Shown piece after piece: positions 1,095 to 54,125 of a stretch of DNA of 64,000 bases. Source of the DNA: an uncultured Acidobacteriota bacterium (GTDB lineage: Bacteria > Acidobacteriota > Vicinamibacteria > Vicinamibacterales > CAVVIG01). Under the pieces are notes generated by a model. That model saw only the letters and a list, made by a program, of their open reading frames with translations, was not told the DNA's origin and made no database searches. How positions within the stretch are numbered: the first letter of the stretch is position 1; every line of letters starts with the position of its first letter. A program made the position numbers and the translations under genes. The stretch lies in assembly GCA_963745495.1 (NCBI GenBank), contig CAVUXJ010000005.1:198847-262846 (forward strand). The letters are read 5' to 3'.

Positions 1095-1184
1095 GCGGAA
1101 CCCGAGCCACGAAATATCGACATTCCAAGTCTGACATCCGATCAAGACTCCAGACCTCGTACTTCAGGTTGGGTCGTTTCTGTT

Positions 1185-2069
1185 TCAGCGGTCCTTGGAT
1201 GGACTGGCGGCGGGCTCGATGCCTGCGCGCTCGAGGATGGACGCGAGAACGGCCGGCGCGCGCCGGATGGGCAGATTGCTGATGTAAAAGTGGCGGGCGC
1301 CGACATCGAGCAGCGTCCGCAGGGTCCGGGCGCAAGCCTCCTCGGCGCTGGCGCCCGCCGCGAACTCGCGCGTGAGCCCTTCGACCGGCACGGGCAGAAA
1401 GCTCTGGAGCGCGGCAAGGGTACGAGGGTTCGCGCTCCGGTAGAAAAACACGCCGAATACGGCTGGTAATGTCATTGCGCGCCGTCTGGCGGCGTTGAGA
1501 AACCGTTCGACGGTCCTGACGTCGTGATGACTGACAACCTGTGTGAGGTAGAACTCTGCGTGAAAGCTCGGCGACGCAAGGTAGTCAATCTGCGTGTCGG
1601 CATCGCCGTGCGGGTTCGCCCATCCGCCGAGCGTGATCGCGTGGTCGCGGGCGTGAAGCAGCTGCCGCAATTGCCATGCATGTTCAACCGATCGCGGCAT
1701 GCCCACCGACTTGTCGCCGCCGAGCACGACCAGCGCGGGAAAGCCGGCTTGGTGCGCTCTGTCGGCGTATGACAGGCAGTACTCGAGCGAGTGCTTCGCC
1801 GTGAGAAACGGCACGATTCGCTGGCGGGGAACGTCCTTGCCGAGGTTCGTGACGAGATGCCGCAGGTTGTCCTCTTCCTCGGCGCCCACTGCGCTGTCGG
1901 TCAGGAAGACGAAGGTGCCCTCCCGGGTGAACCGCCGCACCGCGTGGTACGTGTCGATCCAGGCGTCCATCCCTTCGCCCGGAGTGAGCTCCGTCCGCGG
2001 GGGCCGCAATTCGGCGCCGAACACGGACGCGCCGGCGCGCAGGGCGGACAAGAGATCGGGAACTGCCAT
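1185..2069 (-). CDS. Divergent methylenetetrahydrofolate reductase (MetF)-like flavoprotein
   Basis: AELRPPR (cf. FEFFPPK), VVLGGD (cf. ALRGD) and YLTQ (cf. FITQ) in MetF order, 294 aa. Confidence 0.55.
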   Translation of the reverse strand: MAVPDLLSALRAGASVFGAELRPPRTELTPGEGMDAWIDTYHAVRRFTREGTFVFLTDSAVGAEEEDNLRHLVTNLGKDVPRQRIVPFLTAKHSLEYCLSYADRAHQAGFPALVVLGGDKSVGMPRSVEHAWQLRQLLHARDHAITLGGWANPHGDADTQIDYLASPSFHAEFYLTQVVSHHDVRTVERFLNAARRRAMTLPAVFGVFFYRSANPRTLAALQSFLPVPVEGLTREFAAGASAEEACARTLRTLLDVGARHFYISNLPIRRAPAVLASILERAGIEPAASPSKDR

Positions 2070-2070
2070 G

Positions 2071-2148
2071 GGCAGGACGGGCGGGAGGGGCAGGAACGGC
2101 AGGAGCGGACGCCTTCCAGCCCCTCCTGCCTCTCCTGCCTATCCGGCC
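2071..2148. repeat. Palindromic array of 9-bp units (GGCAGGAnn x4, inverted x4)
   Basis: ggcaggacg/ggcgggagg/ggcaggaac/ggcaggagc then cttccagcc/cctcctgcc/tctcctgcc/tatccggcc. Confidence 0.8.
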
Positions 2149-2564
2149 CTTCTATAGGTCTTGAGGGCTTCGTCGATGAGAAACAAGTCTGTCAGCAGCG
2201 CCCGCAGGTGAATGGAGGCATTGAGGTTGTCGACCAGCTGGGAGCTGATGGCCGGCTGGGCCAGCACCAGCCGTACGGCTGCCTGGGCATCGCGCGCGTC
2301 GCGGTCGAGCACCGTCATGAACGCCGTGAAAGGCGCCGCCGACTCGACACCGATCTGCTCAACGAATCTGTTCAGAAATCCGGCCAGATCCGTGAGCGCC
2401 TCGTCAGACCTGCGGAGGAACGTCCGAATCTGGCTTCCGCTGCCGGTGCCCACGTCGCTATCAAGTCCTTGTGCCGCGTACGCGAGCATGAACTCATAGC
2501 ACTCTTCGATCGCGTTGCAGCGGCTGTTCAGCTCGGCCCGCGCGGCTTCGAGTACGGCGCTCAC
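2139..2564 (-). CDS. Hypothetical helical protein (141 aa)
   Basis: GTG start overlaps the cytochrome b stop (GTGA); protein-like sequence IEECYEFMLAYAAQG...DNLNASIHLRALLTDLFLIDE. Confidence 0.7.
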   Translation of the reverse strand: MSAVLEAARAELNSRCNAIEECYEFMLAYAAQGLDSDVGTGSGSQIRTFLRRSDEALTDLAGFLNRFVEQIGVESAAPFTAFMTVLDRDARDAQAAVRLVLAQPAISSQLVDNLNASIHLRALLTDLFLIDEALKTYRRAG

Positions 2565-3523: not shown

Positions 3524-4540
3524 CTAGGTGGTCGCCGTCGGCCCGGTCCCGCGGATGGCGCGTTTGACGAGGTTGCGCATCAGGGGAATCTTGTAGCCGT
3601 TGTAGCGGAGCGGCACGGCGCCCTCGACGGCCAGCCGGCCGGCCAGGTCCGCCGTCGCGTCATTGCGCGGCTGCCCGGCCACCGCCGTCTCGACCGCCCG
3701 CAGCCGCACCGGCGTCGCCGCGACGGCGCCCACCGCCAGGCGCAGGGCCTGGATCGTGCCGCCCGAGGCTTTCATCGCCGAGGCGACGTTGACGAGCGGA
3801 AAGTCCCAGACCTGCCGGTCGCGCACCTTCTCGAAGTAGAACTGGGCCCCGGCCCAGGTCGCCGGAAGCCGGATGGCCGTCAGCAGTTCGCCCGGCCGCA
3901 GCACCGTCATCCGCATGATGTCGATCCCCGGGCCCACAAAGTAGGCTTCCGCGTCCACCACCCGTTCCCCGCCCCCCGCGCGGCGCAGCACCATCTGCGC
4001 GTCGAGCGCGATCAGCGCCGGCGCCGTGTCCGACGGGCTCACCGCCACGCAGCGGTCGGCATTGAGGATCGCGTGCTCGCGGTTGATCGCCGTCGGCGTA
4101 TCCGCATAGCAGATGTTGCCGCCCGCCCGATAGCACGTCCAGCCGCTGCGGTAATACCAGCAGCGCGTGTCCTGCGAGACGTTGCCGCCGAGCGTCCCCT
4201 GGTTGCGGATCTGCGGCGAGGCCACCAGGTCGGCCGCTTCCCGCAGCAGCCCGAACTGCTCGCGCACCACCGGGTGCCGCCCGACCTCGGTCAGCGTGGT
4301 CAGCGCCCCGATCTCGAGGCCGCCGTTGACCTCCTTGATCCCGCGCAGCTCCGCCACCTGGCTCAGGTCGATGACGAGGCTGGTCCGCTTCGCCCGGTCC
4401 TTGAGCCAGTCAAACGTATCGAGGCCGCCCGCCATGATCCAGGCCTCGGCTCCGTAGCGATCCAGCAGGCTCAGGGTATCGGCCACCGTCGCCGGCTGAA
4501 ACAGCTCGAAGACCGGCATCACGTCGCGAATGACTGCCAT
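3524..4540 (-). CDS. Xanthine dehydrogenase family FAD-binding medium subunit, PaoB/YagS-like (copy 1)
   Basis: ASPQIRNQGTLGGN, Cys-rich insert RCWYYR...CYRAGGNIC...C typical of the 4Fe-4S-bearing PaoB/HcrB type, NGYKIPL. Confidence 0.9.
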   Translation of the reverse strand: MAVIRDVMPVFELFQPATVADTLSLLDRYGAEAWIMAGGLDTFDWLKDRAKRTSLVIDLSQVAELRGIKEVNGGLEIGALTTLTEVGRHPVVREQFGLLREAADLVASPQIRNQGTLGGNVSQDTRCWYYRSGWTCYRAGGNICYADTPTAINREHAILNADRCVAVSPSDTAPALIALDAQMVLRRAGGGERVVDAEAYFVGPGIDIMRMTVLRPGELLTAIRLPATWAGAQFYFEKVRDRQVWDFPLVNVASAMKASGGTIQALRLAVGAVAATPVRLRAVETAVAGQPRNDATADLAGRLAVEGAVPLRYNGYKIPLMRNLVKRAIRGTGPTATT

Positions 4541-4556
4541 ATCAGTTGCTCCTGAA

Positions 4557-4690
4557 ATCTGGAGATCGGGTCATCGGGTGATCTGGTCACGGCTGGAGTC
4601 AGGTGACTGACCCATCCCCCAAATCACTAACTCGTAAATCACTGAATCGCCAAACCACCAAGTCGCCAAATCACTCCTGATCACTAAATG
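4557..4690. repeat. Palindromic array of 8-bp units (ATCTGGTC type)
   Basis: atctggag/atcgggtc/atcgggtg/atctggtc then inverted cactaact/cactgaat/cgccaaac/caccaagt/cgccaaat/cactaaat; near-identical copy at 14068-14200. Confidence 0.75.
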
Positions 4691-7191
4691 TTTGCCGTCA
4701 ACGTGTCATGCATCGGCCGGCCGTGTTCGAGCGCCATCAGGATCATGTCCGGCGTCACCGGCGCGCGACGGAAAACCTCGTCGCTATTGAGCGCCGCCGA
4801 GATTGCATTCACGATGGCGCCGAAGCCCGCACCGACCGGCGCTTCGCCCACGCCGCGCGAACCCACCGGGGTCTCCGGATCGGCGATATCGACCGCCGCC
4901 CATTGCATCTTCGCCGGCGCATCGAGAATTGACGGGGGCTTGCTGTAATGGAAGCGCTTGGCGAGCGGCACGCCGTAGTGCTGGTCGTACACCCACTTCT
5001 GACCGATCGCATGGCCGATCCCGAGCATCACCCCGCCGAGAATCTGACCGCCCAGATTGCGCGGATGCAGCACGGTCCCGCAGTCGGCCACCGCCAGGTA
5101 ATCGAGGATCTTGTACGCTCCGGTTTCGGTGTCGATCTCCACCTCGGCAAACCCGGCGACGTACGATTTCGAAATGCCGTCGCGGCCGTAATTGTCCTTC
5201 GCAACGCCCATCAGGCCTTGCCCGGCGAGCGCGGTCGCCGACGTTCTGGTGACGGGGTTGATATCGGCCGGCAGTTCATGGCCGTCGTACGTCCCGCCGA
5301 GTTCGATCGCCTTCTGCGCCGCCTGGGCCAGCGTCATGCTGCGTCCGCCTCCAGACACCCGCTCGTTCGCGACCTGATACGAGGCGGGAGCGCCGCCGAG
5401 CGTCTTGGCCGCGATCTCCTGCAGCTTCTTCTTGGCGTCGGATGCGGCTGCGTGGGCCGCGCGCGGCATGGCGTGCGCCGTCTGGCTGCCGCCCTGGTTG
5501 CATGTGTTCGGCAGGTTCTTGGCCGTGTTGCCCCAAGCGATATCGACTTTGTCCCACGGCACACCGAGGATGTCCGCCGCCACGCGATGGGAGTCGAACA
5601 CCGATTCGGTGCCCAGGTTGCCAATGCCCGACTGGATGGCGAGCCGGCCGTCCGGCTTGATCACCATGAGCCCGTCGAACCCGATCGAGCCGGCGGAATA
5701 CGTGCTCACTGCGACGCCGACGCCGCTCACCTTGGATCCCACGCGCTGCCCGCTTCGCGCTTTCCGCTCTTCCCAGTTGAAGAGCGCGGCCCCTTTGTCC
5801 AGGGCGTCCTTCAGGAACGCGCTCGTCACATGATTCCGCTGTCCGCGCGCGTTGGGGGCGCCAAAGTCCGCCTTCCCCTCAGGGGCGTTGATCCGCCGGA
5901 TGGCGACCTGATCGATGCCGAGCTGACGAGCCGCCTTCGCGAGGATCGGCTCCATCAGCGAGTTACCCTGCATCCCACCCGGCGCGCGCTGAGCGCCGCG
6001 CGGCGGGGTGTTCGTCAGCACGGTGACCATGCGCCACCGCATCGCGAGCGGCTGACAGGCCAGCGAGATATGGTCACCGGCCGACCGCGAATCGTTCACG
6101 ACGTCGTACGGCCCGTTGTCGATGATGGCGAACCCGTCGAGCGCCGTGATGCGGCCATCCTTCCGGAAGCCGATCTTCACGCGCGAATGCAGCGCCGGGC
6201 GGGCGCGGCCGATGGCATGCTCGTCGTCGCGCGTGATCCGCATCATGACCGGCGCGTTGGCTTTCTTCGACAAGAGCGCCGCCACAGCCACGAACACCGA
6301 CGAGGAGCCCTTGCTGCCGAAACCGCCGCCGGTGTACTCGCTGATGATGACGACGTTCTCGGGCGGGATGCCGACCCATCGCGCGACCGAGCCGACGGTG
6401 CGCATGGTGCTCTGGGTCGAGCAGTGCATATACAGCTTGCCGTTCTGCCAGTACGCCATCGCGGTGCGCGTCTCGAGCGGCTGATGGCTCGTGTTGTTCC
6501 CGACGAACGTCTCGTCGAGAATGAGGTCGGCCTGCTTGAAGCCCGCCTCGACATCGCCGGCCTGCCACTCGTCCGTGTGCTTGCCGAGCGGAAGTTGTCC
6601 GGGTCCGGCCGCGGCGAAATCCTCGTCCGTCCACTTCAGTTCCTGCACCTGAGGCCGCGCGGGCGCGGCCGCCGGGCCTGCCCCTGGTCCTGCCTGTGGG
6701 GCGCCCGGCGCCGGCAGCGGGCGAACCCAGGCGTTGCCCTGCGTGCGCGCGTTGGGACTGTTGGGTCGCAGCGTCTCAATCGGATCCACCGCGAAGGGCA
6801 GCGGCTCGTACTCGACCTGGATCCGCTCGATCGCTTCGGTCGCGGTCAGCTCGTCCACCGCCGCCACCGCCAGAATCGGCTCGCCATGGTACAGCGGCTC
6901 CATCGTCAGGCCGCGCTCGCTCAGCGTGCTCGCGATGATGCCTTCGCCGAGGTTCGCGCCCTCGACGACGGCCGGCAGATCGTCGACCGTCAGGATCGCT
7001 TTGACGCCCGGCATCGCGAGCGCCGCGCTCGTGTCGATGCGTATCACTCGGGCGTGCGGCATCGGGCTGCACAGCAGCTTCGCGAACAGCATGCCCTCCG
7101 CGCGGAAGTCTTCGGCGTACTTCGCCTTGCCCGTGACTTTCGCGACGAGGTCGGGGGTCGAATAATTCTGGCCGACTAATTTATCTGCCAT
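4684..7191 (-). CDS. Xanthine dehydrogenase family molybdopterin-binding large subunit (copy 1)
   Basis: KVTGKAKYAED, GGGFGSK, QRAPG, RGVGEAP with catalytic Glu, 835 aa. Confidence 0.92.
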   Translation of the reverse strand: MADKLVGQNYSTPDLVAKVTGKAKYAEDFRAEGMLFAKLLCSPMPHARVIRIDTSAALAMPGVKAILTVDDLPAVVEGANLGEGIIASTLSERGLTMEPLYHGEPILAVAAVDELTATEAIERIQVEYEPLPFAVDPIETLRPNSPNARTQGNAWVRPLPAPGAPQAGPGAGPAAAPARPQVQELKWTDEDFAAAGPGQLPLGKHTDEWQAGDVEAGFKQADLILDETFVGNNTSHQPLETRTAMAYWQNGKLYMHCSTQSTMRTVGSVARWVGIPPENVVIISEYTGGGFGSKGSSSVFVAVAALLSKKANAPVMMRITRDDEHAIGRARPALHSRVKIGFRKDGRITALDGFAIIDNGPYDVVNDSRSAGDHISLACQPLAMRWRMVTVLTNTPPRGAQRAPGGMQGNSLMEPILAKAARQLGIDQVAIRRINAPEGKADFGAPNARGQRNHVTSAFLKDALDKGAALFNWEERKARSGQRVGSKVSGVGVAVSTYSAGSIGFDGLMVIKPDGRLAIQSGIGNLGTESVFDSHRVAADILGVPWDKVDIAWGNTAKNLPNTCNQGGSQTAHAMPRAAHAAASDAKKKLQEIAAKTLGGAPASYQVANERVSGGGRSMTLAQAAQKAIELGGTYDGHELPADINPVTRTSATALAGQGLMGVAKDNYGRDGISKSYVAGFAEVEIDTETGAYKILDYLAVADCGTVLHPRNLGGQILGGVMLGIGHAIGQKWVYDQHYGVPLAKRFHYSKPPSILDAPAKMQWAAVDIADPETPVGSRGVGEAPVGAGFGAIVNAISAALNSDEVFRRAPVTPDMILMALEHGRPMHDTLTANI

Positions 7192-7193
7192 TG

Positions 7194-7811
7194 TCAGGCC
7201 CTCCGCATGTTCTCAGCGCCCTTCATCAGGGCGGTGAGGATCTTGTCGTAGTCCTGGCACCGGCACAGATTGCCGGACACCCCATGCGCCAGCTCGGCCC
7301 GGGTCGGGTTCGGATTCGTCTTGAGGAAGCCGGCCGCCGCCATCACGAAGCCCGGCATGCAGAAGGCGCACTGGAACCCCTGCTCGCTCACCACGCCCTG
7401 CTGGATCGGATGCAGCGTCCCGTCGGCGCTGGCCAGCCCTTCGATCGTCACGATCTTCGCGCCGCGCACCGAATGCGTCAGCACCGAGCACGAATACCGG
7501 GGCACATCGTCCACCAGGACGGTGCAGGCGCCGCATTCCGAGCGGTCGCAGCCCAGCTTGGTGCCGGTCAGCCCGAGCTTGTAGCGCAACGTCATGGCCA
7601 GCGTTTCCTGCTTCATCACGTCGACGCGGCGATCCTGCCCGTTGACGTTCAGCGTCAGGAGCCGCTCGACGCTGCCCGGCAGCGACGGCTGCTGCCCGAG
7701 CAGCGCGCTCCCGCGGAACACATAGGCCGCCGACGAGACCGCGGCGCCCGCCGCAATCACTCCCTTGATGAAGTTCCGTCTGGAGACATCTCGTTGAGTG
7801 TCCTCAGTCAT
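7194..7811 (-). CDS. Tat-exported (2Fe-2S) small subunit, PaoA/YagT-like (copy 1)
   Basis: SRRNFIK twin-arginine signal; GCDRSECGACTV, QCAFCMPG, NLCRC. Confidence 0.92.
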   Translation of the reverse strand: MTEDTQRDVSRRNFIKGVIAAGAAVSSAAYVFRGSALLGQQPSLPGSVERLLTLNVNGQDRRVDVMKQETLAMTLRYKLGLTGTKLGCDRSECGACTVLVDDVPRYSCSVLTHSVRGAKIVTIEGLASADGTLHPIQQGVVSEQGFQCAFCMPGFVMAAAGFLKTNPNPTRAELAHGVSGNLCRCQDYDKILTALMKGAENMRRA

Positions 7812-7879
7812 CGTTCTATCTCCCATAGCTGAAGCGCCTAGGCTCGTTTGGACCGGGCTGGACAAGAGGAAATGAAGGA

Positions 7880-8443: not shown

Positions 8444-9459
8444 TCAGGTGGTCGCCGTCGGCCCGGTCCCGCGGATGGCGCGTTTGACGAGGTTGCGCAT
8501 CAGGGGAATCTTGTAGCCGTTGTAGCGGAGCGGCACGGCGCCCTCGACGGCCAGCCGGCCGGCCAGGTCCGCCGTCGCGTCGTTGCGCGGCTGCCCGGCC
8601 ACCGCCGTCTCGACCGCCCGCAGCCGCACCGGCGTCGCCGCGACGGCGCCCACCGCCAGGCGCAGGGCCTGGATCGTGCCGCCCGAGGCTTTCATCGCCG
8701 AGGCGACGTTGACGAGCGGAAAGTCCCAGACCTGCCGGTCGCGCACCTTCTCGAAGTAGAACTGGGCCCCGGCCCAGGTCGCCGGAAGCCGGATGGCCGT
8801 CAGCAGTTCGCCCGGCCGCAGCACCGTCATCCGCATGATGTCGATCCCCGGGCCCACAAAGTAGGCTTCCGCGTCCACCACCCGTTCCCCGCCCCCGCGC
8901 GGCGCAGCACCATCTGCGCGTCGAGCGCGATCAGCGCCGGCGCCGTGTCCGACGGGCTCACCGCCACGCAGCGGTCGGCATTGAGGATCGCGTGCTCGCG
9001 GTTGATCGCCGTCGGCGTATCCGCATAGCAGATGTTGCCGCCCGCCCGATAGCACGTCCAGCCGCTGCGGTAATACCAGCAGCGCGTGTCCTGCGAGACG
9101 TTGCCGCCGAGCGTCCCCTGGTTGCGGATCTGCGGCGAGGCCACCAGGTCGGCCGCTTCCCGCAGCAGCCCGAACTGCTCGCGCACCACCGGGTGCCGCC
9201 CGACCTCGGTCAGCGTGGTCAGCGCCCCGATCTCGAGGCCGCCGTTGACCTCCTTGATCCCGCGCAGCTCCGCCACCTGGCTCAGGTCGATGACGAGGCT
9301 GGTCCGCTTCGCCCGGTCCTTGAGCCAGTCAAACGTATCGAGGCCGCCCGCCATGATCCAGGCCTCGGCCCCGTAGCGATCCAGCAGGCTCAGGGTATCG
9401 GCCACCGTCGCCGGCTGAAACAGCTCGAAGACCGGCATCACGTCGCGAATGACTGCCAT
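8444..9459 (-). CDS. FAD-binding medium subunit (copy 2), apparent 1-bp frameshift near 8895
   Basis: Near-identical DNA to 3524-4540; one C missing in a C-run. Confidence 0.88.
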
Positions 9460-9473
9460 AGGCTGACTCCTGA

Positions 9474-9536
9474 ATCTGGTCATCGGGTCATCTAGTCATC
9501 TGGTCATTGATTGACCAAATAACCAGATAACTAGAT
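9474..9536. repeat. Palindromic array of 8-bp units
   Basis: atctggtc/atcgggtc/atctagtc/atctggtc then gaccaaat/aaccagat/aactagat. Confidence 0.8.
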
Positions 9537-12062
9537 GTTCGCAGCGTCAACGGCTCCTGCATCGGCCGGCCGTGCTCCAGCGCCATCAGGATCATATCCG
9601 GCGTCACCGGCGCGCGGCGGAAGATGTCGTCGCTGCCAAGCGCCGCTGAAATCGCGTTGACCACGGCACCGAACCCGGCACCCACCGGCGCCTCGCCGAT
9701 GCCGCGGGCCCCGACCGGCGTTTCCGGATCCGGAAGGCCCAGCGCGACTGCGTCCATCTTGAGCGGCGCATCGAGGATCGAGGGCGGCTTGTTGTGGTAG
9801 AAGCGTTTGGCGAGCGGCACGCCGTAGTGCTGGTCGTACGCCCACTTCTGGCCGAGGGCATGTCCCAGCCCGAGCATGATGCCGCCCAGCACCTGCGCCT
9901 TCAGGTTGCGCGGGTGGATCACGGTGCCGCAATCGGCGACCGCGAGCAGATCGAGCACCTGATACTGCCCGGTCTCGACGTCCACTTCGACTTCGGCGAA
10001 CGCCACCGTGTACGCCTTCGTGATGCCGTCGCGCCCGTAATTATCTCTGGCGACCCCCATCAACCCCTGACCCGCGAGATTAGTCGCCGATGTCTTGGTG
10101 AAGGCCGCGATATCCTCCGGGAGCTCGTGACCGTCGTACGTGCCGCCGAGCTCGATCGCCTTCTGCGCCGCCTGCGCCAGCGTCATGCTGCGCCCGCCGC
10201 TCGACACTCGCTCGTTCGCCACACGGTAGGACTCGGGACGTCCGCCGAGCGTCTGGGCCGCGATCTCCTGCAGCTTCTTGACGAGATCGCTGGCGGCGGC
10301 GTGTGCGGCGCGCGTCATCGCGTGCGTCGTCGAGCTGCCGCTCTGGCTGCAGGTGTTCGGCAGGTGCTTCGACGTGTTGCCCCACGTCACGTCGACTTTG
10401 TCCCACGGGATGTCGATCAGTTCAGCGGCGACGCGGTGCACATCGAACGTGGACTCGGTGCCGAGGTTGCCGATGCCCGACTGGACGGTCAATCGCCCGT
10501 CGGGTTTCAGAATCAGCAACCCATCGAAGCCGACGGGTCCGCCGGAATAGGCGCTGACCGCGACGCCGACGCCGCGAACCTTCGAGCCATTGCGTTCGCC
10601 ATTGTGCGCCTTCCGTGCCTCCCACCGGAACAATTCGGCGCCCTTGTCCAACGCCTCTTTCACGAACGCGCTCGTCACATGATTCCGGACGCCGCGTGCG
10701 TTCGGCCCGCCGAACTCCGCCTTGCCGGACGGGGCGTTGATCCGGTGAATCTCGACTTCGTCGATGCCAAGCCTGCGCGCCGCCTTCGCAAGAATCGGCT
10801 CCATCAATGCGCTGGCCTGGTAGCCACCCGGGGAGCGCTGCGCGCCGCGCGGCGGCGTGTTCGTCAGCACGTTCAGTGCGCGCCACCGCATGGCCAGAGG
10901 CTGATGCGACAGGGATCCGTGGTCCCCCAGGGATCGCGAGTCGCCGACCACGTCGTACGGTCCGTTGTCGACCACGAACAACCCGTCGAGCGCCGTAATG
11001 CGGCCGTCCTTCCGGAAGCCGATCTTGACGCGTGAATGAATGGCGGGGCGGGCACGGCCGATGGCGTGCTCGTCGTCACGGCTGATCCGCATCATGACCG
11101 GCGCGTTGGCCTTCTTCGACAGCAGCGCGGCGACGGCGATGAAGACCGACGACGAGCTCTTGCTGCCGAACCCGCCGCCCGTGTATTCGCTGATCACGAC
11201 CACATCCGCCGGCTTGATGCCAACCCATCGCGCCACCGCCGCCACCGTGCGGACCGTGCTCTGCGTCGAATTGATCATGTAGAGCTTGCCGTTCTGCCAG
11301 TACGCCATCGCCGAGCGCGTCTCGAGCGGCTGGTGACTCGTGTTGTTCCCGACAAACGTCTCGTCGAGAATGAGAGCGGCGTCCTTGAACCCTGCCTCCA
11401 CATCGCCGTACGACCACTCGTCGGTGTGCTGGCCGAGGGGCAGCTGTCCGTCGTGCGCCGCGGCAAAATCCTCCGCGGTCCACTTCAGCTCTTTGACCTG
11501 CGGCCGGGCGGGCGCCGCGGCGGGCGTGGCGGTACCGCTCGTAATCGGCTGCCCCGCCGCCGCCTGCGGCGCGGGTGGCGTCGCAGGCGGCCGGATCCAC
11601 ACGTTGCCCTGCACCCGCGCGTTCGGACCGCCGGGGCGCAAGCTGACGAGCGGATCGACCGCGAAGGGCAGCGGCTCGTACTCGACCTGAATCCGCTCGA
11701 TCGCTTCGGTCGCGGTCAGCTCGTCCACCGCCGCCACCGCCAGAATCGGCTCGCCGTGATACAGCGGCTCCATCGTGAGGCCGCGCTCGCTGAGCGTGCT
11801 CGCGATGATGCCCTCGCCCGAGGTTCGCGCCCTCGACCACGGCCGGCAGATCGTCGACCGTCAGGATCGCTTTGACGCCCGGCATCGCGAGCGCCGCGCT
11901 CGTGTCGATGCGTGTCACTCGCGCGTGCGGCATCGGGCTGCACAGCAGCTTCGCGAACAGCATGCCCTCGGCGCGCAAGTCCTCGGCATACTTCGCCTTG
12001 CCCGTGACCTTCGCCACAAGGTCGGGCGTGAGGTAGTCCTGCCCGACCAATTTGTCAGCCAC
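9531..12062 (-). CDS. Molybdopterin-binding large subunit (copy 2), apparent frameshifts near 11815 and 9543
   Basis: ORFs 11076-12062 (N-terminus) and 9488-11773 join into one paralog; GGGFGSK, QRSPG, RGIGEAP; homologous ANI-stop at 9531. Confidence 0.88.
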
Positions 12063-12063
12063 G

Positions 12064-12341
12064 TTACGCCCTCCGCATGTTCTCAGCGCCCTTCATCAGG
12101 GCGGTGAGGATCTTGTCGTAGTCCTGGCACCGCGCTCCTGCTTCATCACGTCGACACGGCGATCCTGCCCGTTGACGTTCAGCGTCAGGAGCCGCTCGAC
12201 GCTGCCCGGCAGCGACGGCTGCTGCCCGAGCAGCGCGCTCCCGCGGAACACATAGGCCGCCGACGAGACCGCGGCGCCCGCCGCAATCACTCCCTTGATG
12301 AAGTTGCGTCGTGACACGTTCGGCTGCGTCGCTTCGATCAT
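12064..12341 (-). pseudogene. (2Fe-2S) small subunit copy 2 with ~340-bp internal deletion
   Basis: Tat signal and C-terminal QDYDKILTALMKGAENMRRA DNA are present, but 350 bp of copy 1 (7261-7610) correspond to only 10 bp (12131-12140); may be an assembly artefact. Confidence 0.7.
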
Positions 12342-12422
12342 CTGAACGTCTCCCTGTCGCTGGAATCGGCCGGGCTCGGCGACTGCGTCGGCGGGCGTTT
12401 GTCGATGTCTGTGATCGCGACC

Positions 12423-12467: not shown

Positions 12468-12902
12468 TCACCGACCCGTTTGATGGGGCTTGTCTTGGAC
12501 TTTTGACGCGGTGACGGCAAGGCCCTCCTCGACCGTCACGGACCACTCGAGGTTGGCCGAGTCCACGACCAGGTAGAACACCCGGGGATCTTCGTTGATG
12601 TAGGAAATGTCGTGACCCACGCCCCGTGATTCGCCGGCAAGTGCGAGGGGCCGCCCGCTGATCGCGCTGTGAACGGTCACCTGAAACCTTCCGCGTCCGC
12701 GCGCGGTCTCGTTGCGCGTTTCCCACCTCACGCGCAGGGAACCGGTCTCGCCGATGAAGGATTCTGTCTGTTGCGATCCCCGGCCCGTCCATGAGCCCAG
12801 CTGCTGCCAGATGAAGGCGTCCTCGGTGGCGGGCTTCGACTCGACGCCACAGCCGGCAGCAAACAGAACGCCTGCCGCGACGAGCAGAGTATGTAGGTTC
12901 AA
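12468..12902 (-). CDS. Hypothetical lipoprotein, paralog 2
   Basis: LLVAAGVLFAAGC lipobox; homologous to 7905-8345; start codon uncertain. Confidence 0.72.
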   Translation of the reverse strand: MNLHTLLVAAGVLFAAGCGVESKPATEDAFIWQQLGSWTGRGSQQTESFIGETGSLRVRWETRNETARGRGRFQVTVHSAISGRPLALAGESRGVGHDISYINEDPRVFYLVVDSANLEWSVTVEEGLAVTASKVQDKPHQTGR

Positions 12903-12929
12903 CTGTGAGGTCTCACGTCTGAAGTCTGA

Positions 12930-12973
12930 GAGCCTGTGAAGAAATCGCCAAACAGCGATTTCTTCACAGGCTC
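12930..12973. mobile_element. 44-bp MITE-like element with 19-bp perfect terminal inverted repeats
   Basis: GAGCCTGTGAAGAAATCGC-caaaca-GCGATTTCTTCACAGGCTC flanked by TGA on both sides; an 18/19 match to the arm occurs at 44125-44143. Confidence 0.55.
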
Positions 12974-13033
12974 TGAGGCGTGCCTGAGCACGTCGGACGT
13001 CAACGTCCAAGAGACGATCCGAGCCGCGACCAA

Positions 13034-14051: not shown

Positions 14052-14067
14052 ATCAGTTGCTCCTGAA

Positions 14068-14200
14068 ATCTGGAGATCGGGTCATCGGGTGATCTGGTCA
14101 CGGCTGGAGTCAGGTGACTGACCCATCCCCCAAATCACTAACTCGCTAAATCACTGAATCGCCCAATCACCAAGTCGCCAAATCACCCGATCACTAAATG
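14068..14200. repeat. Palindromic array of 8-bp units, duplicate of 4557-4690
   Basis: Same spacer sequence as unit 1 with few differences. Confidence 0.75.
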
Positions 14201-16698: not shown

Positions 16699-16699
16699 G

Positions 16700-17317
16700 T
16701 TACGCCCTCCGCATGTTCTCAGCGCCCTTCATCAGGGCGGTGAGGATCTTGTCGTAGTCCTGGCACCGGCACAGATTGCCGGACACCCCATGCGCCAGCT
16801 CGGCCCGGGTCGGGTTCGGATTCGTCTTGAGGAAGCCGGCCGCCGCCATCACGAAGCCCGGCATGCAGAAGGCGCACTGGAACCCCTGCTCGCTCACCAC
16901 GCCCTGCTGGATCGGATGCAGCGTCCCGTCGGCGCTGGCCAGCCCTTCGATCGTCACGATCTTCGCGCCGCGCACCGAATGCGTCAGCACCGAGCACGAA
17001 TACCGGGGCACATCGTCCACCAGGACGGTGCAGGCGCCGCATTCCGAGCGGTCGCAGCCCAGCTTGGTGCCGGTCAGCCCGAGCTTGTAGCGCAACGTCA
17101 TGGCCAGCGTTTCCTGCTTCATCACGTCGACGCGGCGATCCTGCCCGTTGACGTTCAGCGTCAGGAGCCGCTCGACGCTGCCCGGCAGCGACGGCTGCTG
17201 CCCGAGCAGCGCGCTCCCGCGGAACACATAGGCCGCCGACGAGACCGCGGCGCCCGCCGCAATCACTCCCTTGATGAAGTTCCGTCTGGAGACGTCTCGT
17301 TGAGTGTCTTCGGTCAT
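16700..17317 (-). CDS. Tat-exported (2Fe-2S) small subunit (copy 3)
   Basis: Protein identical to copy 1 from MTEDTQRDVSRRNFIK onward. Confidence 0.92.
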   Translation of the reverse strand: MTEDTQRDVSRRNFIKGVIAAGAAVSSAAYVFRGSALLGQQPSLPGSVERLLTLNVNGQDRRVDVMKQETLAMTLRYKLGLTGTKLGCDRSECGACTVLVDDVPRYSCSVLTHSVRGAKIVTIEGLASADGTLHPIQQGVVSEQGFQCAFCMPGFVMAAAGFLKTNPNPTRAELAHGVSGNLCRCQDYDKILTALMKGAENMRRA

Positions 17318-18941: not shown

Positions 18942-19063
18942 TCAGACAGCTTACAGTTATCAGTTGACAGCTTTCAGCAGATCGGGAAGTGAGACGCTCA
19001 TCCTGGCTGCGCGTGAACTGTCGCTGATGTGACTGACTGATAGCTGTGAGCTGTCAAGCTAAC
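18942..19063. repeat. Palindromic array of 7-bp units (WCAGCTn type)
   Basis: acagctt/acagtta/tcagttg/acagctt/tcagcag ... ctgatag/ctgtgag/ctgtcaag/ctaac. Confidence 0.7.
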
Positions 19064-25234: not shown

Positions 25235-25325
25235 GCGGGAGGGCGGGAAAGGGCAGGAGGGGGCTGGAGGGGCGGGAAGGGCAGGAGGGGCGGGAAGGGT
25301 TGGCCGCCGCAGCCCTTCCTGTCGC
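25235..25325. repeat. Array of 9-bp GGCRGGARG units with short inverted arm
   Basis: About seven units (ggcgggaaa/ggcaggagg/ggctggagg/ggcgggaag...) then cccttcctgtc. Confidence 0.75.
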
Positions 25326-25359: not shown

Positions 25360-26338
25360 ATGAACGTCCTCGTCGCCGACAGGTTCGAGCAGAGCGGCCT
25401 CGACGGCCTCAGGAAGGCCGGATGCGACGTTTCCTATCAACCCGACCTGAAGGATGCGGCGCTCGCAGAGGCGATTCTCGAGAGACGGCCGAGGTGCTGG
25501 TCGTCCGCGGGACTCCGGTCACGCCGGCAATGCTCGAAGGCAGTGCGCTGTCGCTGATCGTCCGTGCCGGCGCCGGCTACAACACGATCGACGTGGCGGC
25601 GGCCTCTCGGCAGTGTATCTACGTGTCGAACTGTCCCGCTCAAAACGCCATTGTCGTCGCCGAGTGGACCCGTGCAGATCGCCGCGTCGCCCCAGACGAT
25701 GGCCGAACGCGCGGATATCCTGAGCGTGCACCTGGCGCTGACGGCTGCCACACGCGACTTCGTCGACAGCTCGATCCTCGAGAGGCTGAGGCCGGGCGCC
25801 TACGTGATCAACACCGCGCGCGGAGCTCATCGACTCCACGGCCCTCGAACGATCCGTGCGCGAGCGTAGCGTTCGCGTCGGCGTCGACGTGTTCGCGAAC
25901 GAGCCGACCGCAGCGACGGGCGCCTTTGCCGACCGAATCGTGCAGTGGCCGAACGTCTACGGGACGCATCATATCGGCGGATCGACCGATCAGGCGCAGG
26001 ACGCCATTGCGGACGAGACCGTCCGGGTCATCGTCACCTACAAGAACACCGGCAAGGTTCCGAACGTCGTGAACCTGGCGACCAAGACGCCGGCCACGCA
26101 CATGCTCGTCGTCCGGCACCGCGATCGTCCCGGAGTGCTCGCTCACGTCTTCGACCGCTTGCGGAGCGGCCTGATCAACGTGCAGGAGACCGAGAACGTC
26201 GTGTTCGAAGGCGCGGAAGCCGCTGTGGCCCGCATCAATCTGGACCAGGCGCCGTCCGACGCGCTCCTTCAGGCGATCCGTGCCGGCTGCGGTGACATCC
26301 TCGACGTGCATGTTATTGCCATCGGAGTTGACAGTTGA
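25360..26338 (+). CDS. serA: D-3-phosphoglycerate dehydrogenase with ACT domain; frameshifted and apparently missing the NAD-binding segment
   Basis: RAGAGYNTID, INTARG, DVFANEP, HHIGGST, HRDRPGVL spread over several frames; adjacent to serC. Confidence 0.75.
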
Positions 26339-26361
26339 CAGTTAACTGACGACCCTAGACC

Positions 26362-33369: not shown

Positions 33370-34144
33370 GTGCGGATCGCTCTTGCCGTCCTGCTTCTGG
33401 CCGCGGCCATCGGCTGCGGCCGCGGACTGTTCCGACAGTACGAGTACGAGGAAGAGATGTATCTGTCGCTCGACGGATCGGCCACGATCTACGTCAACAG
33501 TTCAGTGCCCGTGCTGAATGCCTTGCGCGGTGCGTCGTTCGACGTCCGACCGAACGCGCCGCTGGATCGGGCGGCCGTGCGTGAATATTTCACGACGCCC
33601 GTGACGCGGGTGACGCGCGTGAGCACGTCGCGACGCAACAACAGGCGCTTCGTCCACGTGCGGGTCGACGTCGACGACGTTCGGCGGCTCGGCGCAGGCG
33701 CCGCCATTCGCTTGGTCTTCCTACCAGTTCTCGAACGGCGGCGATGTGGTCACCTACCGTCAGACGGTCGGCGCGGCCGCGGGGAAGCCGGTGGAGGAAG
33801 GGCGCTGGACGGGACAGGAAGTCGTGGCCTTCCGGCTGCACATTCCAAGCCGGATCGTCTTCCACAATGCCGGTCCGGGCAACCCGCAGCGCGGCAATAT
33901 TCTGGCGTGGGAGCAGCCGCTGATCGAGCGGCTGCGAAGCACGCCGTTGGCGCTGGACGCTCGAATGGAACCGCAGTCGATTCTGTACAGCACCCTGTTG
34001 CTGTTCGCCGGCACCGTCGTGGCCGTCGCGATGATGTTTGCAGTCGTTGTCTGGCGAATTCTGCGGACCGGCCGTCGCCGCGGGCTCACGCCGGGGCAGG
34101 AAAGGCAGGAAAGGCTGGAACGGCAGGAAAGGCTGGAAGGGTAG
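33370..34144 (+). CDS. Hypothetical lipoprotein with C-terminal TM helix, apparent frameshift near 33700
   Basis: LLLAAAIGC lipobox; YEYEEEMYLSLDGSAT; TM segment TLLLFAGTVVAVAMMFAVVVW. Confidence 0.65.
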
Positions 34145-34192
34145 GAAGGGCTCTTTCCTGTCCGCCTCCTGCCCTTCCCTCCTATCCTGCCC
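34095..34192. repeat. Palindromic array of 9-bp GGCWGGAAR units between convergent genes
   Basis: Six forward units 34095-34148, then four inverted units. Confidence 0.8.
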
Positions 34193-34194
34193 TA

Positions 34195-39479: not shown

Positions 39480-39493
39480 AACACACGCTGCAC

Positions 39494-39571
39494 GTCTCAA
39501 GGCTCAAGTGTCAAGTCTCATTCGGCACAGACTTGAGACTTCGAAACTTGAGACTTACGCCTTGCAGCCTA
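39494..39571. repeat. Palindromic array of 7-bp units (TCAAGTC/GACTTGA type)
   Basis: tcaaggc/tcaagtg/tcaagtc ... gacttga/gacttcg/aacttga/gacttac between convergent genes. Confidence 0.7.
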
Positions 39572-43429: not shown

Positions 43430-44103
43430 GGCGCGGTCACCTCCGCGAGCGCTCGATACATCCGCTCGAGGTCCGGCGCGGTGTCGTGAATCGCCGCCAG
43501 ATGGGCGTCGATGGTCGCCCAGTCGCCACGCGCGATTGGTCCCGTCAGCTGGAAGCCGTTGTCGATGGTCCGGCGCATCAACGGGACGAGCGCTTCCTTC
43601 GGTGCTCCGGCCGATTCGAGCAGCCTGCTGGCGGATCGATACAGCGTGACCAGGTAGTTGGACGCGATCGCGGCCCCCGCGTGATACAGCATCCGGGCCT
43701 CGTCGCGGATCTCGAAGGGCGTCACGCCCAGACGCTCGGCCAGCCAGAAGCCGCGCGCACGGCCGGCGGGCGTGTCAGCCGTGACCGCGGCCCACGCGCC
43801 GTCGAGCTGATCGCCAGACCCCGAGCGATCGAACGTCTGGAGTGGATGGAGTCCGAAGCGGTGAATGTGCGGCGCGAGGGCGGCCAGCGGCGTCGCGCCG
43901 CTGATGTGCGCGATCCAGGGGCCAGGCTCGATGGTGCTTGCCACCTCGCGGATCGCCGAGTCGGGGACACACAGCAGCACGAGGTCCGGCGCGCCCTCCC
44001 GCCAGTCCAGATCCCGCTCGCGCAGCCGCGCGTTCACGGCCGACCCTGCGCGGCCGTGTCCGATGACCCTGACGCTCCTGAACATCTGCTCGGGCTCTTC
44101 CAT
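43426..44103 (-). CDS. Rossmann-like + DUF2520 protein, PanG-type ketopantoate reductase candidate
   Basis: IGHGRAG, HPLQTF, YHAGAAIASNY, LTGPIARGD; translationally coupled to panC. Confidence 0.8.
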   Translation of the reverse strand: MEEPEQMFRSVRVIGHGRAGSAVNARLRERDLDWREGAPDLVLLCVPDSAIREVASTIEPGPWIAHISGATPLAALAPHIHRFGLHPLQTFDRSGSGDQLDGAWAAVTADTPAGRARGFWLAERLGVTPFEIRDEARMLYHAGAAIASNYLVTLYRSASRLLESAGAPKEALVPLMRRTIDNGFQLTGPIARGDWATIDAHLAAIHDTAPDLERMYRALAEVTAP

Positions 44104-44124
44104 AGAGATGTCAATCCGGCTAAC

Positions 44125-44393
44125 GAGCCTGTGAAGAGATCGCTGCAGTGCAGGCCTTGGGCGCGCCTGCCGCTTCCGCGCCTTCGGCGCTTCAGCGAGC
44201 CACGCCGAAGCTTGCCTGAAGGTCGTGCGAGCGAAGGCGGGAAGCTCCGCACGACATCAGGAGCGATGTCTTCGCCACCACTAGAGCCGGACCACTACGC
44301 GTCGACGCTTTCGGCTATCAGCCGTCAGCTGCTCCCAGCTGAAAGCCGCTGAAGGCTGACAGCTACGAGCTGATAGCTCCTAAGGCTGACGGG
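44125..44393. repeat. Composite repeat region: MITE arm, REP-like hairpins and 7-bp inverted array
   Basis: gagcctgtgaagagatcgc; ccgcttccgcgccttcggcgc...gcgaaggcgg; tcggcta/tcagccg/tcagctg ... gctgaaa/gctgaag/gctgaca/gctgata. Confidence 0.6.
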
Positions 44394-44421
44394 TCGGGCG
44401 CAAAAATGCAAGAATGCCCGA

Positions 44422-46158: not shown

Positions 46159-47462
46159 CCGGGGACGAGATGATCGCGCTCTCGAAGAAGCACACGCTCT
46201 TCGAGTGGTCGGCCCAGTCGCAGGTCGATCCCATTCCAATTGCGCGCGCCAAGGGGATCTATTTCTGGACGCCCGAAGGCAAGCGGTTCATCGACTTCAA
46301 CAGCCAGTTGATGTGCGTGAACATCGGCCACGGCGACGCGCGGGTGGTTCGAGCGATTCAGGAGCAGGCGGCCACCCTCGTCTACGCTGGAGCCTCGATG
46401 GCGACCGAGCCGCGCGCCCGCCTCGGCGCGAAGCTGGCAGAAATCACTCCGGGCGACATCGACGTGTTTTTCTTCACCAACGGCGGCGCCGAGGCGAACG
46501 AGAACGCGATCAGGATTGCTCGCCGGGCCACGGGACGCCACAAGATCCTGGCGAGATACCGATCGTTCCACGGTGCGACGGCCGGGAGCGCCACGCTGAC
46601 AGGCGATCCGCGGCGCTGGGCAGTCGAGCCGGGGCTGCCCGGCGTCGTGCACGTCCTCGACCCTTATCACGGTATCGAGCGCGGTTGGGACACGACCGCG
46701 CAGGCGCTCTCCGCGCTCGAGGAGGTCATTCAGCTCGAAGGCCCACATACGATTGCAGCCTTCATCCTGGAAACGGTGACCGGCACCAACGGAGTACTGG
46801 TGCCGCCGGACGGATACCTGCAGGGCGTACGCGAGCTGTGTACCCGATACGGTATCCTGTTGATCTGCGACGAAGTCATGTGCGGCTTCGGTCGCACCGG
46901 CGAATGGTTTGCCGTCAATCACTGGAACGTCGTCCCAGACATCCTGACGATGGCCAAGGGGCTGACGAGCGCATACGTGCCGCTCGGAGCGGTGGGCATG
47001 CGGAGGAGCATCGCCGAGCAGTTCAAGGACAACGTGTTCCCTGGCGGCCTCACGTACAACAGCCATCCGCTCGCTTGCGCGGCGGCGCTCGCCACCATTC
47101 GCGTGTACGAGGAGGACAAGCTGGTCGACAATGCCCGGCGGATGGGAATCGTGATGAAGGAGGTGACGGCCGCTCTTCAGGAGCGACATCCGTCCATCGG
47201 GGTCGCCCGTTCGATCGGGTTGTTCGGAGTCCTGGAGCTCGTTCGCGATCGCGCCAAGCGTCAGCCGCTGGCGCCCTTCAACGGGACATCGGACGCGATG
47301 AAGGCCCTGACGAGGTTCTTCCGCGAGGAAGGACTGTATACGTTCGTGCGCTGGAATACGTTCTTCACGAATCCCCCGCTGTGCGTAACCGAGCCTGAGT
47401 TGCGTGAAGCGTTCAGCATCATCGATCGCGGCCTCGAGCTCACCGACCAGGCGGTCGTTTAA
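46155..47462 (+). CDS. Class III PLP aminotransferase
   Basis: [34 protein letters not shown]. Confidence 0.9.
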
Positions 47463-47573
47463 TCTGGTCATCTAATCATCTGGTCATCTGGTTATTTCAA
47501 TTCAATAACCAGATTACAAATCACCAAATCACCAAAGATCACCAGATCAGCCAGATCACCAGATCACCAAATA
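47462..47573. repeat. Palindromic array of 8-bp units between convergent genes
   Basis: atctggtc/atctaatc/atctggtc/atctggtt ... aaccagat/caccaaat/caccagat (repeated)/caccaaat. Confidence 0.8.
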
Positions 47574-52470: not shown

Positions 52471-52522
52471 CTCTCCCATTTGTCTTTCCTGCACGGCCCG
52501 GTCTAGCATCGCGGCCAGAAAC

Positions 52523-53983
52523 GTGCTTTTGACCCAGCCGGCGTTTCTCTTCCTCTTTCTTCCGGCGCTGCTCGCTCTGTACTTTCTCGTCGTGGCGATG
52601 GCCACCAAGGGGACCGGCGACGCCGATCTGAACGCCGCCAACGCGCTCCTGGTGGCGGCGAGCTTGGTCTTCTACACACAAGGCGCCGGTCGATACGTCT
52701 GGTTGCTGTGCGGGTCGATCGCCTTTAACTGGTGGGTGGCCGGTGCCATCGATCGGGCGCATGCGGGGGCTGCCGGACCGTCGGCCCGCATCGCGAAGAC
52801 GCTTCTGGTGTGGGGCGTAACGGTAAACGTTCTGGTGCTCGGGGTATCCAGGTACGTGAACTTTTACGCCGGAAACTTCGGTACCCTGTCCCTGGCGCTC
52901 GGCAGGCAGCCGATCGGGACAGGCGTGGTGCTTCCGCTTGGCATGTCGTTCCTGACCCTGCACGCGATCTCCTATCTGGTCGATGTGTACCGGCGCGACG
53001 ACCGTTCGCGGCGCCGACTCGTGGACGCGGCGCTGTACCTTGCGTTTTTTCCGCCCCTCATAGCAGGACCAATCGTCCGTTACCGGGATTTCGCTCATCA
53101 GATCTCCGAACGGGTGGTCGGCGTCGGCAACTTCGTGTACGGCGTCCGGCGTGTCGTCATCGGTCTCTGCAAGAAGCTCCTGATCGCGGACGTCGTGGGC
53201 GTCATGGCCGATCGGGCCTTCGACATGCCGGTCGATCGCCTCGGCGCCGGCACGGCGTGGTTCGGTCTCACCTGCTTCACGTTGCAGATCTACTTCGCGC
53301 TGTCGGGGTATTCGGACATGGCGATCGGGCTCGGACGCATGTTCGGGTTCCGTCTGCCCGAGAACTTCCGCTGGCCGTATGTCGCGGAGACGGTGCAGGA
53401 GTTCTGGCGCCGCTGGATGATTTCCCTCTCCGCCTGGTCGCGCGACTATCTGTATCTCCCGCTCGGCAGCGACAACCCGGCGGCGGACCGGATGTTCCGC
53501 CCCCAGGCAGCGATCGCCGTGTTCGTGTTGTGCGGCCTGTGGCACGGGACGAGCTGGACTTTTGTCATCTGGGGTCTCTATCACGGCGCCTTCATCGTTC
53601 TCGAGCGCGCGGGACTCGCGTTGACGGTCGGGAGGTTGCCGACCCCGCTGCGCCACGTGTACCTGGTCGTTGTCGTGATGATCGGGTGGGTGTTCTTCCG
53701 GGCCGAGAGTGTCCTCGCGGCGCTGACGTTCTTGAACGCGCTCGCCGGACTCCAGACCTCGGGGGCCCCTGTGTTTGCCCTGAAGCCCGCTCCGAGCCTC
53801 TACTTCTGGATGGCGCTGCTCGCGGGCCTGACTGCGTCGGCGCCGCTCGTGGGTTCGGTGAGCCGATGGCGGGTGACGATCGACGCCGTCACTGTTTCAG
53901 CGCTGGCGATGCTGTTTGCCACGGGAATCTTCATCTGGTCCAGCATCCGCTCGTTGTGGTCGGCGTTCGAGGCGAAACGGTAG
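52523..53983 (+). CDS. MBOAT O-acyltransferase, AlgI/PatA-like
   Basis: LPLGMSF, FFPPLIAGPIVR, SGYSDMAIG, ENFRWPY, GLWHG. Confidence 0.9.
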   Translation: MLLTQPAFLFLFLPALLALYFLVVAMATKGTGDADLNAANALLVAASLVFYTQGAGRYVWLLCGSIAFNWWVAGAIDRAHAGAAGPSARIAKTLLVWGVTVNVLVLGVSRYVNFYAGNFGTLSLALGRQPIGTGVVLPLGMSFLTLHAISYLVDVYRRDDRSRRRLVDAALYLAFFPPLIAGPIVRYRDFAHQISERVVGVGNFVYGVRRVVIGLCKKLLIADVVGVMADRAFDMPVDRLGAGTAWFGLTCFTLQIYFALSGYSDMAIGLGRMFGFRLPENFRWPYVAETVQEFWRRWMISLSAWSRDYLYLPLGSDNPAADRMFRPQAAIAVFVLCGLWHGTSWTFVIWGLYHGAFIVLERAGLALTVGRLPTPLRHVYLVVVVMIGWVFFRAESVLAALTFLNALAGLQTSGAPVFALKPAPSLYFWMALLAGLTASAPLVGSVSRWRVTIDAVTVSALAMLFATGIFIWSSIRSLWSAFEAKR

Positions 53984-53996
53984 GGCATCAAGGAAA

Positions 53997-54125
53997 ATCT
54001 GAAACCTGAAGACTGAGACTTCAGACGTGAGACTTTCCCGTTTCTAAGAGCGTCTTCGTTCAGTCACCACGAAGGCCCGAAGCCTAGAGCCCAATCAGAC
54101 TTCAGATTTCAGACTTCAGATTTTG
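53997..54125. repeat. Degenerate array of 7-bp units (TCAGACT type) between convergent genes
   Basis: tctgaaa/cctgaag/actgag ... tcagact/tcagatt/tcagact/tcagatt running into the stop codon at 54116. Confidence 0.65.

Follow-up and report, generated by a model that had tools for sequence, protein, structure and literature searches.

The 64,000-nt window analysed here comes from a contig of an uncultured Acidobacteriota bacterium, and its intergenic regions carry tandem arrays of degenerate 7-9-nt words, most of which are followed by the same word inverted. We found that these arrays are probably the gene-less shells, empty or decaying, of a class of small-gene cassettes. In a full cassette, one 7-9-nt word would form inverted arrays on both sides of a small gene, and this cargo would be either a four-helix-bundle 'S23p/IVS' protein (TIGR02436) or a GxxExxY PD-(D/E)XK-like protein (PF13366). 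Cassettes and shells are alike in word length, degeneracy, arm length and polarity; the same orthologous sites are occupied by filled, partly emptied and empty alleles; and changes within the genus include gain or loss of units, loss of the interior or of an arm, and the exchange of one word family for another within fixed boundaries. Protein clades each retain a word of their own. The genome of the window (G000; 4.41 Mb in 16 contigs, 74.5% complete) was compared with a genome of the same genus (G001) and with genomes from the bacterial family (other G-numbers). The window has a G+C content of 65%, and the public runs with DNA closest to it are soil metagenomes.

Arrays of this kind were frequently observed to enclose the two cargo families. 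Five PF05635 matches were found in the genome of the window, three of which lie between inverted arrays and two of which have one arm. The intact genes at C7:163399 and C11:193330 and a fragment at C9:226931 (24 bits, below the cut-off) are located between inverted 7-mer or 9-mer arrays, and one arm remains beside a third intact gene and beside a pseudogene that has a TGA in frame. TIGR02436 is present in 37 of the 41 genomes of the bacterial family, and inverted arrays were located on both sides of 27 of the 30 best family loci, a count made without a permuted-word control; the exceptions include one locus just under the score threshold and one cut by a contig end. PF13366 is present in 28 of the 41 genomes, and 16 of its 20 loci are enclosed by 8-9-mers of the CACRGAGN kind, again as counted without permuted words; it was not found in the 74.5% complete genome of the window or in G001. 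A cross-phylum scan was seeded with a narrower four-helix clade, as a first, wide protein alignment could not seed it, and returned 80 loci, 73 of them with both flanks. Arrays enclosed the gene in 60 of these 73 loci versus 8 with permuted words, a figure that describes that one clade. A test on 150-nt flanks that allowed one mismatch per word was rejected as too permissive, and a maximal-segment score was used instead. The original prediction, made from the window alone, had placed similar arrays around four-helix-bundle and GxxExxY genes in other genomes, and these counts bear it out.

Comparison of orthologous sites further shows filled and empty alleles side by side, which supports the proposal of the original prediction that the arrays could be empty cassettes. 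Twenty orthologous stretches were judged by eye for the Iso_dh 3' end (window 39480-39568). A four-helix gene with a TIGR02436 match lies there between 8-mer arms in G013, G002, G011 and G015, and the word differs by genus and is identical in both arms. At the same site G021 has an empty hairpin and a shell with an interior of about 150 nt, G014 and G020 have empty hairpins of CACGAAG, the word that flanks GxxExxY genes, and G000 and G001 have a 7-mer GTCTCAA hairpin. The 13 remaining stretches had no clear array: the hairpins of G024 and G025 are short and plain, the cases of G010 and G022 are ambiguous, another gene adjoins in G003, G023 and G012, and six have different neighbours. Four other genera have a four-helix gene at the position of the window's 39494 element, which is the empty allele of this site. 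A shell homologous to a filled cassette at the same site was found at 39494 and at C9:353028. At the latter, G000 retains the gene with its left arm, and an empty 113-nt hairpin built from a related 8-mer takes its place in G001.

The original prediction had named 14 sites in the window and described their arrays as usually followed by the same units inverted. Using Tandem Repeats Finder (TRF) and direct reading of the letters, we found degenerate 7-9-nt tandem arrays at 12 of the 14 sites and an inverted second arm at 11 of these 12. The fold z-scores of the 11 armed sites, each folded as RNA against 200 dinucleotide shuffles, range from -1.6 to -6.2, indicating that long-stem terminal inverted repeats are present. 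The description did not hold at 1124..1185, which has neither periodicity (no TRF row) nor a hairpin (z +0.5), held for one arm at 26327, and at 12905 has to be replaced by a plain 20-bp hairpin among a few heptamers. No four-helix open reading frame (ORF) was found in the window's own elements, and the window contained no Rfam match at gathering scores and no tRNA gene by ARAGORN. The features of the window are listed below.

2070..2149, 9-mer GGCAGGARR hairpin of 4+4 units (array 2070-2148; z -6.2), occupying the entire gap from the stop of one minus-strand gene to the start of the next gene
4557..4680, 8-mer ATCTGGTC-type element with degenerate arms (array 4557-4672; z -1.6), between the large-subunit and FAD-subunit genes of a molybdo-dehydrogenase operon
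9474..9537, 8-mer ATCTGGTC hairpin in the second paralogous operon (array 9474-9536; z -3.6), with 20-nt arms that are 90% complementary
12905..12990, composite of a few GTCTGAA-type heptamers around a plain 20-bp hairpin at 12926-12977 (z -7.0)
14068..14199, third-operon paralogue of the 4557 element (z -2.4)
18942..19060, 7-mer [AT]CAG[CT]Tn arms with a 21-bp stem and an interior of about 70 nt (z -4.3)
25235..25320, G-rich 9-mer GGCAGGARR-type left array of about 7 units (array 25235-25303) with a short right arm (z -2.3)
26326..26343, single left-arm remnant, GTTGACA in 2.6 copies (detected by TRF)
34095..34193, 9-mer GGCAGGAAA hairpin of the GGCAGGARR family, left arm of 6 units (z -3.3)
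39494..39556, 7-mer GTCTCAA hairpin between the convergent DUF3500 and Iso_dh genes (z -3.9)
44159..44240, variable segment absent from the original prediction, 82 nt here versus 25 nt in G001
44308..44380, 7-mer CAGCTnn hairpin (z -3.4)
47462..47571, 8-mer ATCTGGTC hairpin that begins at the TAA stop of an aminotransferase gene, with a right arm that mixes two word variants (z -5.6)
53994..54124, 7-mer AAATCTG/TCAGACT arms with an 84-nt interior (z -2.4)

The elements changed between the two species of the genus. Over the full window, G001 aligns collinearly with 93-96% identity, and 7 of the 10 alignment breaks lie in named elements, so that for annotation these hairpins explain most length differences between close genomes in the 64 kb. 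The 2071 element has 4+4 units in G000 versus 2+2 in G001. At 4557 and 14068 the 8-mer is replaced in G001 by a 7-mer GGCTKCR element with the same boundaries, one old unit remaining at the edge, and at 25235 G001 has an unrelated plain hairpin at identical boundaries. The 26327 site, with one arm in G000, is a full shell in G001 (4 units, a 120-nt interior and a right arm), and the 53997 element has the same arms in both genomes, with an 84-nt interior in G000 versus a 5-nt loop in G001. Outside the window, a 1.48-kb cassette at C11:193330 in G000 corresponds to 140 unrelated nt in G001, again with identical boundaries. This 1.48-kb block, missing in G001, includes part of a group II intron reverse transcriptase/maturase, 245 aa long (L003:1989-2723), just past the four-helix cassette; the fragment matches TIGR04416 with 110.8 bits versus a cut-off of 300 and sits between the right arm of the cassette and a second right-arm array.

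Turnover was also seen at 47462, after the aminotransferase gene, where G000 and G001 have the 8-mer, G021 has a 7-mer GTCTCAA hairpin, and G003 and G005 have nothing. A metagenome scan for alleles of this site returned three loci, two of which were an unrelated gene. The one true allele keeps the loop and the innermost units and has another word variant in the outside units, and the right arm of G000 contains both variants. In one DNA contig of the public run X1, only 12 letters, different from those here, stand between 47460 and 47582, which hints weakly at an allele without the element.

To place the window's elements in the whole genome, we collected TRF arrays with a period of 6-10 and at least 2.5 copies, and scored as partner a reverse-complement periodic array at most 150 nt away. 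The genome contains 1411 such arrays, 350 with an inverted partner versus 10.7 with permuted words, and the partnered arrays merge into at least 226 loci with 64 canonical words, a floor, since just 5 window sites pass the strict filter. Among the 719 arrays of intergenic DNA, 235 have a partner, versus 69-91 arrays and 0-3 partners in three dinucleotide shuffles. The arrays are thus far above shuffled DNA, polymorphic between relatives and associated with gene families, each the opposite of what the original prediction had listed as grounds for giving it up. Elements of 7-mers were the most numerous (133 loci, with 33 of 8-mers and 16 of 9-mers), and each arm comprises 2-15 units of one 7-9-nt word. 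The loops are short: at scores of at least 14, the arms are 0-50 nt apart in 105 pairs and 50-150 nt apart in 24. The top four word families occupy 24, 18, 16 and 14 loci, and the commonest words, AAGTCTG/AAATCTG/AAACCTG (CTGAAGT-type), 48 loci.

Several candidate structures did not survive this survey. Arm pairs 150-1600 nt apart were mostly two separate elements around ordinary genes (S13, L16, S17, L1/L10, IF3, LysRS, GvpL/K), and the ORFs inside the remaining far pairs had no Pfam or NCBIfam match. By eye, several loops seemed to hold a hairpin of another word; a strict scan of 225 hairpins gave no nested pair. A CRISPR array, which the original prediction had already set aside, is excluded by contiguous, inverted units of 7-9 nt, which are not 23-50-nt direct repeats with unique spacers.

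The two arms of an element are complementary at the word level only, just as the original prediction had read them. Across 58 elements with at least 4 variable units per arm, the arm-to-arm identity in the best register was 0.854 versus 0.852 with the unit order shuffled (mean z 0.11), and p was at most 0.05 in none of the 58. Mirror copying of one arm from the other is therefore unsupported, as shuffling the unit order leaves the identity unchanged. The arms also have a polarity, the G-rich arm coming first in 70 of 88 filled cassettes and the C-rich arm in 5, and among the empty hairpins of the genome G-first outnumbers the reverse by 96 to 45. We rejected telomere-like end addition, as a G-rich arm that comes first on either strand is the opposite of telomere polarity.

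Comparative analysis of 88 cassettes showed that word and protein vary together. The word distance was 0.13 at protein identities of at least 70%, 0.29 at 60-70% and about 0.45 at 50% or less, with a word-protein Mantel r of -0.10 and 24 of 2000 permutations as low. By eye, the words GGGCAGGNN (a 9-mer), nnGGCTn, GGGATTn, GTTGACA, CAGCTST and AGTCGGG each go with one protein clade. At 70-79% protein identity the word stays within about one change per 7-mer, and this conservation suggests a constraint on the word, as judged from sequence comparison; linkage accounts for part of the co-variation.

These features could also be read in terms of binding. It is possible, though we would not favour it, that the word arrays are iteron-like binding sites, in DNA or RNA, for the cargo protein of the matching clade, and that the empty shells are extra sites served in trans, an explanation compatible with the cassettes. 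It would fit words that each clade keeps across genera and phyla and that hardly change at 70-79% protein identity, arms that agree by word and not base for base, a fixed polarity, and homologues that crystallise with five chains (2gsc, 2rld). Against this, linkage alone yields some co-variation, recognition of words would be needed separately in two unrelated folds, and the genome's commonest words are without a cognate gene in the assembly.

Under the reading that we prefer, the window arrays as gene-less shells, the shells would arise from cassettes by loss of the cargo, for which the 24-bit four-helix fragment and the TGA pseudogene still beside arrays in the genome of the window are taken as support. 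The arrays would then be reshaped by replication slippage inside each arm. Once transcribed, the imperfect stems of 20-35 bp would be cut by RNase III, as happens in ORF-bearing 23S rRNA intervening sequences (IVS), and such cutting would make the elements tolerable within operons. The RNA-processing role that the original prediction had offered beside mobility may be entertained by the same analogy with rRNA IVS. An RNase III gene (rnc) is present in the genome; at this locus (G000:C12:156657-157320), TIGR02191 matches in two adjacent frames (positions 2-130 and 127-219), and the split is a frameshift or a sequencing error.

A number of observations weigh against the shells as emptied cassettes. 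The main gap in the argument is that the commonest word family is without a filled copy: for AAGTCTG/AAATCTG/AAACCTG none was found in the genome's own assembly, 74.5% complete, or among the 30 family loci, and these hairpins may be a separate class. The interiors at 18942, 53997 and 44100-44400 and at the 26327 site of G001 had no detectable four-helix remnant. Among 72 copies of four word families there was no common loop, unit order or unit number, and thus no sign of copy-and-paste amplification, and no target-site duplication, defined end or mobilising enzyme was found. The RNase III step is argued by analogy and from the presence of rnc. Where the sense strand is known (82 elements), the 110 G.U oppositions were not significantly more than the 88 A.C oppositions (p 0.135), so that selection on an RNA stem is unsupported by that test. 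Finally, the placement figures given next rest on a crude ORF gene model of our own with 77% coding coverage.

In this gene model, 131 elements could be classified, 82 in same-strand gaps, 36 in convergent and 13 in divergent ones, and they were rarer between divergent genes (13 of 131) than control gaps were (646 same-strand, 211 convergent and 231 divergent, 1088 in total). At 154 gene 3' ends facing an element, the stop codon was inside or abutting the arm in 34, 1-7 nt away in 36, 8-30 nt away in 64 and further away in 20. The original prediction that the outermost unit often contains the neighbouring stop applies, with abutting stops counted, to those 34; mostly the stop is just nearby, within 30 nt at 134 of the 154. 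TAG was the stop at 59 of the 154 element-facing ends versus 477 of 1886 confident genes. The codon adaptation index (CAI) was higher for genes located upstream of an element (median 0.687 versus 0.649, p 1e-6), a 22-kb ribosomal-protein cluster contained 11 elements versus 1.13 expected, and elements also flank the S13, L16, S17, L1/L10 and IF3 genes. The right arm was followed by TTTT in 18 of 184 elements, namely 17 of the 48 CTGAAGT-type copies and 1 of the 136 others. Intrinsic terminators were rejected as an explanation of the class, as a U-tract follows the stem in these 18 only, 17 within one word family. Of the 48 CTGAAGT-type copies, 21 end in AAAA and 17 in TTTT.

This placement would fit hairpins that slippage creates on the spot and that the host retains as RNA elements, such as 3'-end protectors, processing sites or terminators, beside which the small genes merely settle. 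We consider this unlikely. The stops within 30 nt of an arm, the scarcity between divergent genes, the enrichment after high-CAI genes and in ribosomal-protein operons, the AAAA and TTTT ends of the CTGAAGT-type copies and the plain short hairpins at the Iso_dh site in two genera all agree with host use. However, TTTT follows the right arm in just 1 of the 136 elements of other words, elements separate the genes for subunits of a single enzyme, G.U is not in excess of A.C, two species of a single genus differ by loss, halving or exchange of elements, and other genera lack them at the same site. In addition, enclosure of the cargo on both sides at 27 of 30 and 16 of 20 loci is not expected of chance settling.

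Even less probable is that the empty hairpins are non-autonomous transposons like MITEs, copied by a transposase encoded elsewhere. Word families of 24, 18, 16 and 14 loci and the different word families that relatives bear at the same site would agree with such copying, but the 72 copies have just the word in common and differ in loop and in the number and order of units, target-site duplications were not seen, and one enzyme is not expected to serve 64 different words. The elements resemble both MITEs and repetitive extragenic palindromes/bacterial interspersed mosaic elements (REP/BIME) as abundant intergenic palindromes at gene ends, and differ from both in having no conserved full-length consensus, arms that are tandem words and no common loop.

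The original prediction had been reminded of the short tandemly repeated repetitive (STRR) sequences of cyanobacteria, which are named heptamers of the heterocystous members of that phylum. The closest known systems are the ORF-bearing 23S rRNA IVS and the Xanthomonas GGGAATC inverted repeats. In the available text on Coxiella burnetii, the 23S IVS carries an S23p ORF and a 28-bp inverted-repeat stem that is cut by RNase III and has tandem GACAGAT heptamers, 2-3 in number and variable among strains (PMC4990558). Its ORF is decaying, and Leptospira and Brucella are cited in the same text as further ORF-bearing IVS (PMC4990558). The likeness, as far as that text goes, is in the four-helix gene in the loop of a long stem and the tandem heptamer arms of variable number. 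Such an ORF in the loop was absent from the window elements and was found at C7:163399, at C11:193330 and at the 39494 orthologue in four genera. Unlike the IVS, all window elements are located between protein genes and not in helix 25 or 45 of 23S rRNA, and the genome's own 23S rRNA has 2991 nt for 2925 model positions with no large insert. They further differ from the IVS in being mostly gene-less, in their number (hundreds per genome, with at least 64 words) and in a second cargo family, GxxExxY.

In Xanthomonas, convergent GGGAATC heptamer array pairs were described by Rehm et al. 2015, with 70 in Xcc and 75 in Xac and about four units preferred (PMC4692102, available portion). These pairs lie near stop codons and are rare between divergent genes, and their unit number varies by species while the repeat type is kept, again according to that portion (PMC4692102). 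GGGAATC is treated there as a single G-rich G-quadruplex word, and no enclosed gene is named in the portion at hand (PMC4692102), whereas the same design is built here from many words without G-tracts. For a four-helix gene of Xanthomonas arboricola the enclosing arrays are CGGGAAT, which connects Rehm's repeat with the class, and the 9-mer GGCAGGARR and the words of several relatives are G-rich; that the arrays as a whole are G-quadruplex-forming regulatory repeats, as proposed for GGGAATC, is nevertheless very improbable, as most words have no G-tract of three or more (AAGTCTG, ACAGTTG, ATCTGGTC, AAGTCTC) and the 9-mers have GG or GGG only in part.

The TAACTGA heptamers of Beggiatoaceae, Cyanobacteria and Bacteroidetes (MacGregor 2015, PMC4679880) are, in the sections available, upstream of start codons in 169 direct sets versus 1 inverted set, with one word dominating. 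Shared with the arrays, on the evidence of the same sections, are intergenic sets of 2-6 heptamers that also occur inside ribosomal-protein operons, a patchy cross-phylum spread and no known vehicle (PMC4679880). The inverted arms and many words found here differ from the TAACTGA repeats, which according to these sections are nearly all direct.

No literature linking the arrays to these genes outside rRNA was found among Creative Commons PMC papers and bioRxiv preprints. The suggestion that the system is undescribed holds, within that literature, for the link, and has to be given up for the rRNA form and the Xanthomonas inverted heptamer pairs, both of which are in print. Added here are the filled, half-empty and empty alleles at one site, the word swaps within a genus at fixed boundaries and the tenfold excess in the ribosomal-protein cluster. 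Dispersed heptamer repeats, the origin of rRNA IVS and two very large, function-unassigned families of tiny proteins may have one answer. In a broader and much more tentative proposal, the elements would be the non-autonomous remains of a recombinase-less mobile system, in which each four-helix-bundle (pentameric) or GxxExxY clade recognises its own word, the word arrays are the cassette ends and highly transcribed genes are targeted for insertion on their stop-codon side. The rRNA IVS, the Xanthomonas GGGAATC repeats and the cyanobacterial heptamer repeats would then be local faces of one class.

Three of the window sites are not independent: the elements at 4557, 9474 and 14068 occupy the same position in three paralogous molybdo-dehydrogenase operons, between the molybdopterin-binding and FAD-binding subunit genes of these duplicated operons, showing that co-transcribed genes for one enzyme can have such an element between them. 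The operons, each with Fer2, MoCoBD and FAD_binding_5, are located at 3527-7865, 8830-11773 and 12471-17383. Between the paralogues, the end of the FAD-subunit gene and the element are 96-97% alike and the large-subunit genes 75-81% alike, and the copies at 4557 and 14068 both switched word family in G001. The joint switch and the high similarity of this segment suggest gene conversion between the paralogues.

Minor observations were made at other sites. The hairpin at 2067-2149 spans a stop codon to the next annotated start and leaves no space for a ribosome-binding site before 1188-2069(-), so that this start may be mis-set or translation may be coupled. The plain hairpin CTGTGAAGAAATCGC...GCGATTTCTTCACAG (12926-12977) has one exact copy and 8 loose motif matches in G000, and a related form is located at a different site in G001, the orthologue of 25235. 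At 25538-26197, about 660 nt of a 2-hydroxyacid-dehydrogenase-like gene region are without counterpart in the collinear G001 contig. Likewise, the 220 nt at 12133-12352 are absent in G001, which has 17 nt there, and match DNA of the paralogous operons with 91-98% identity, which indicates a displaced duplicate fragment.

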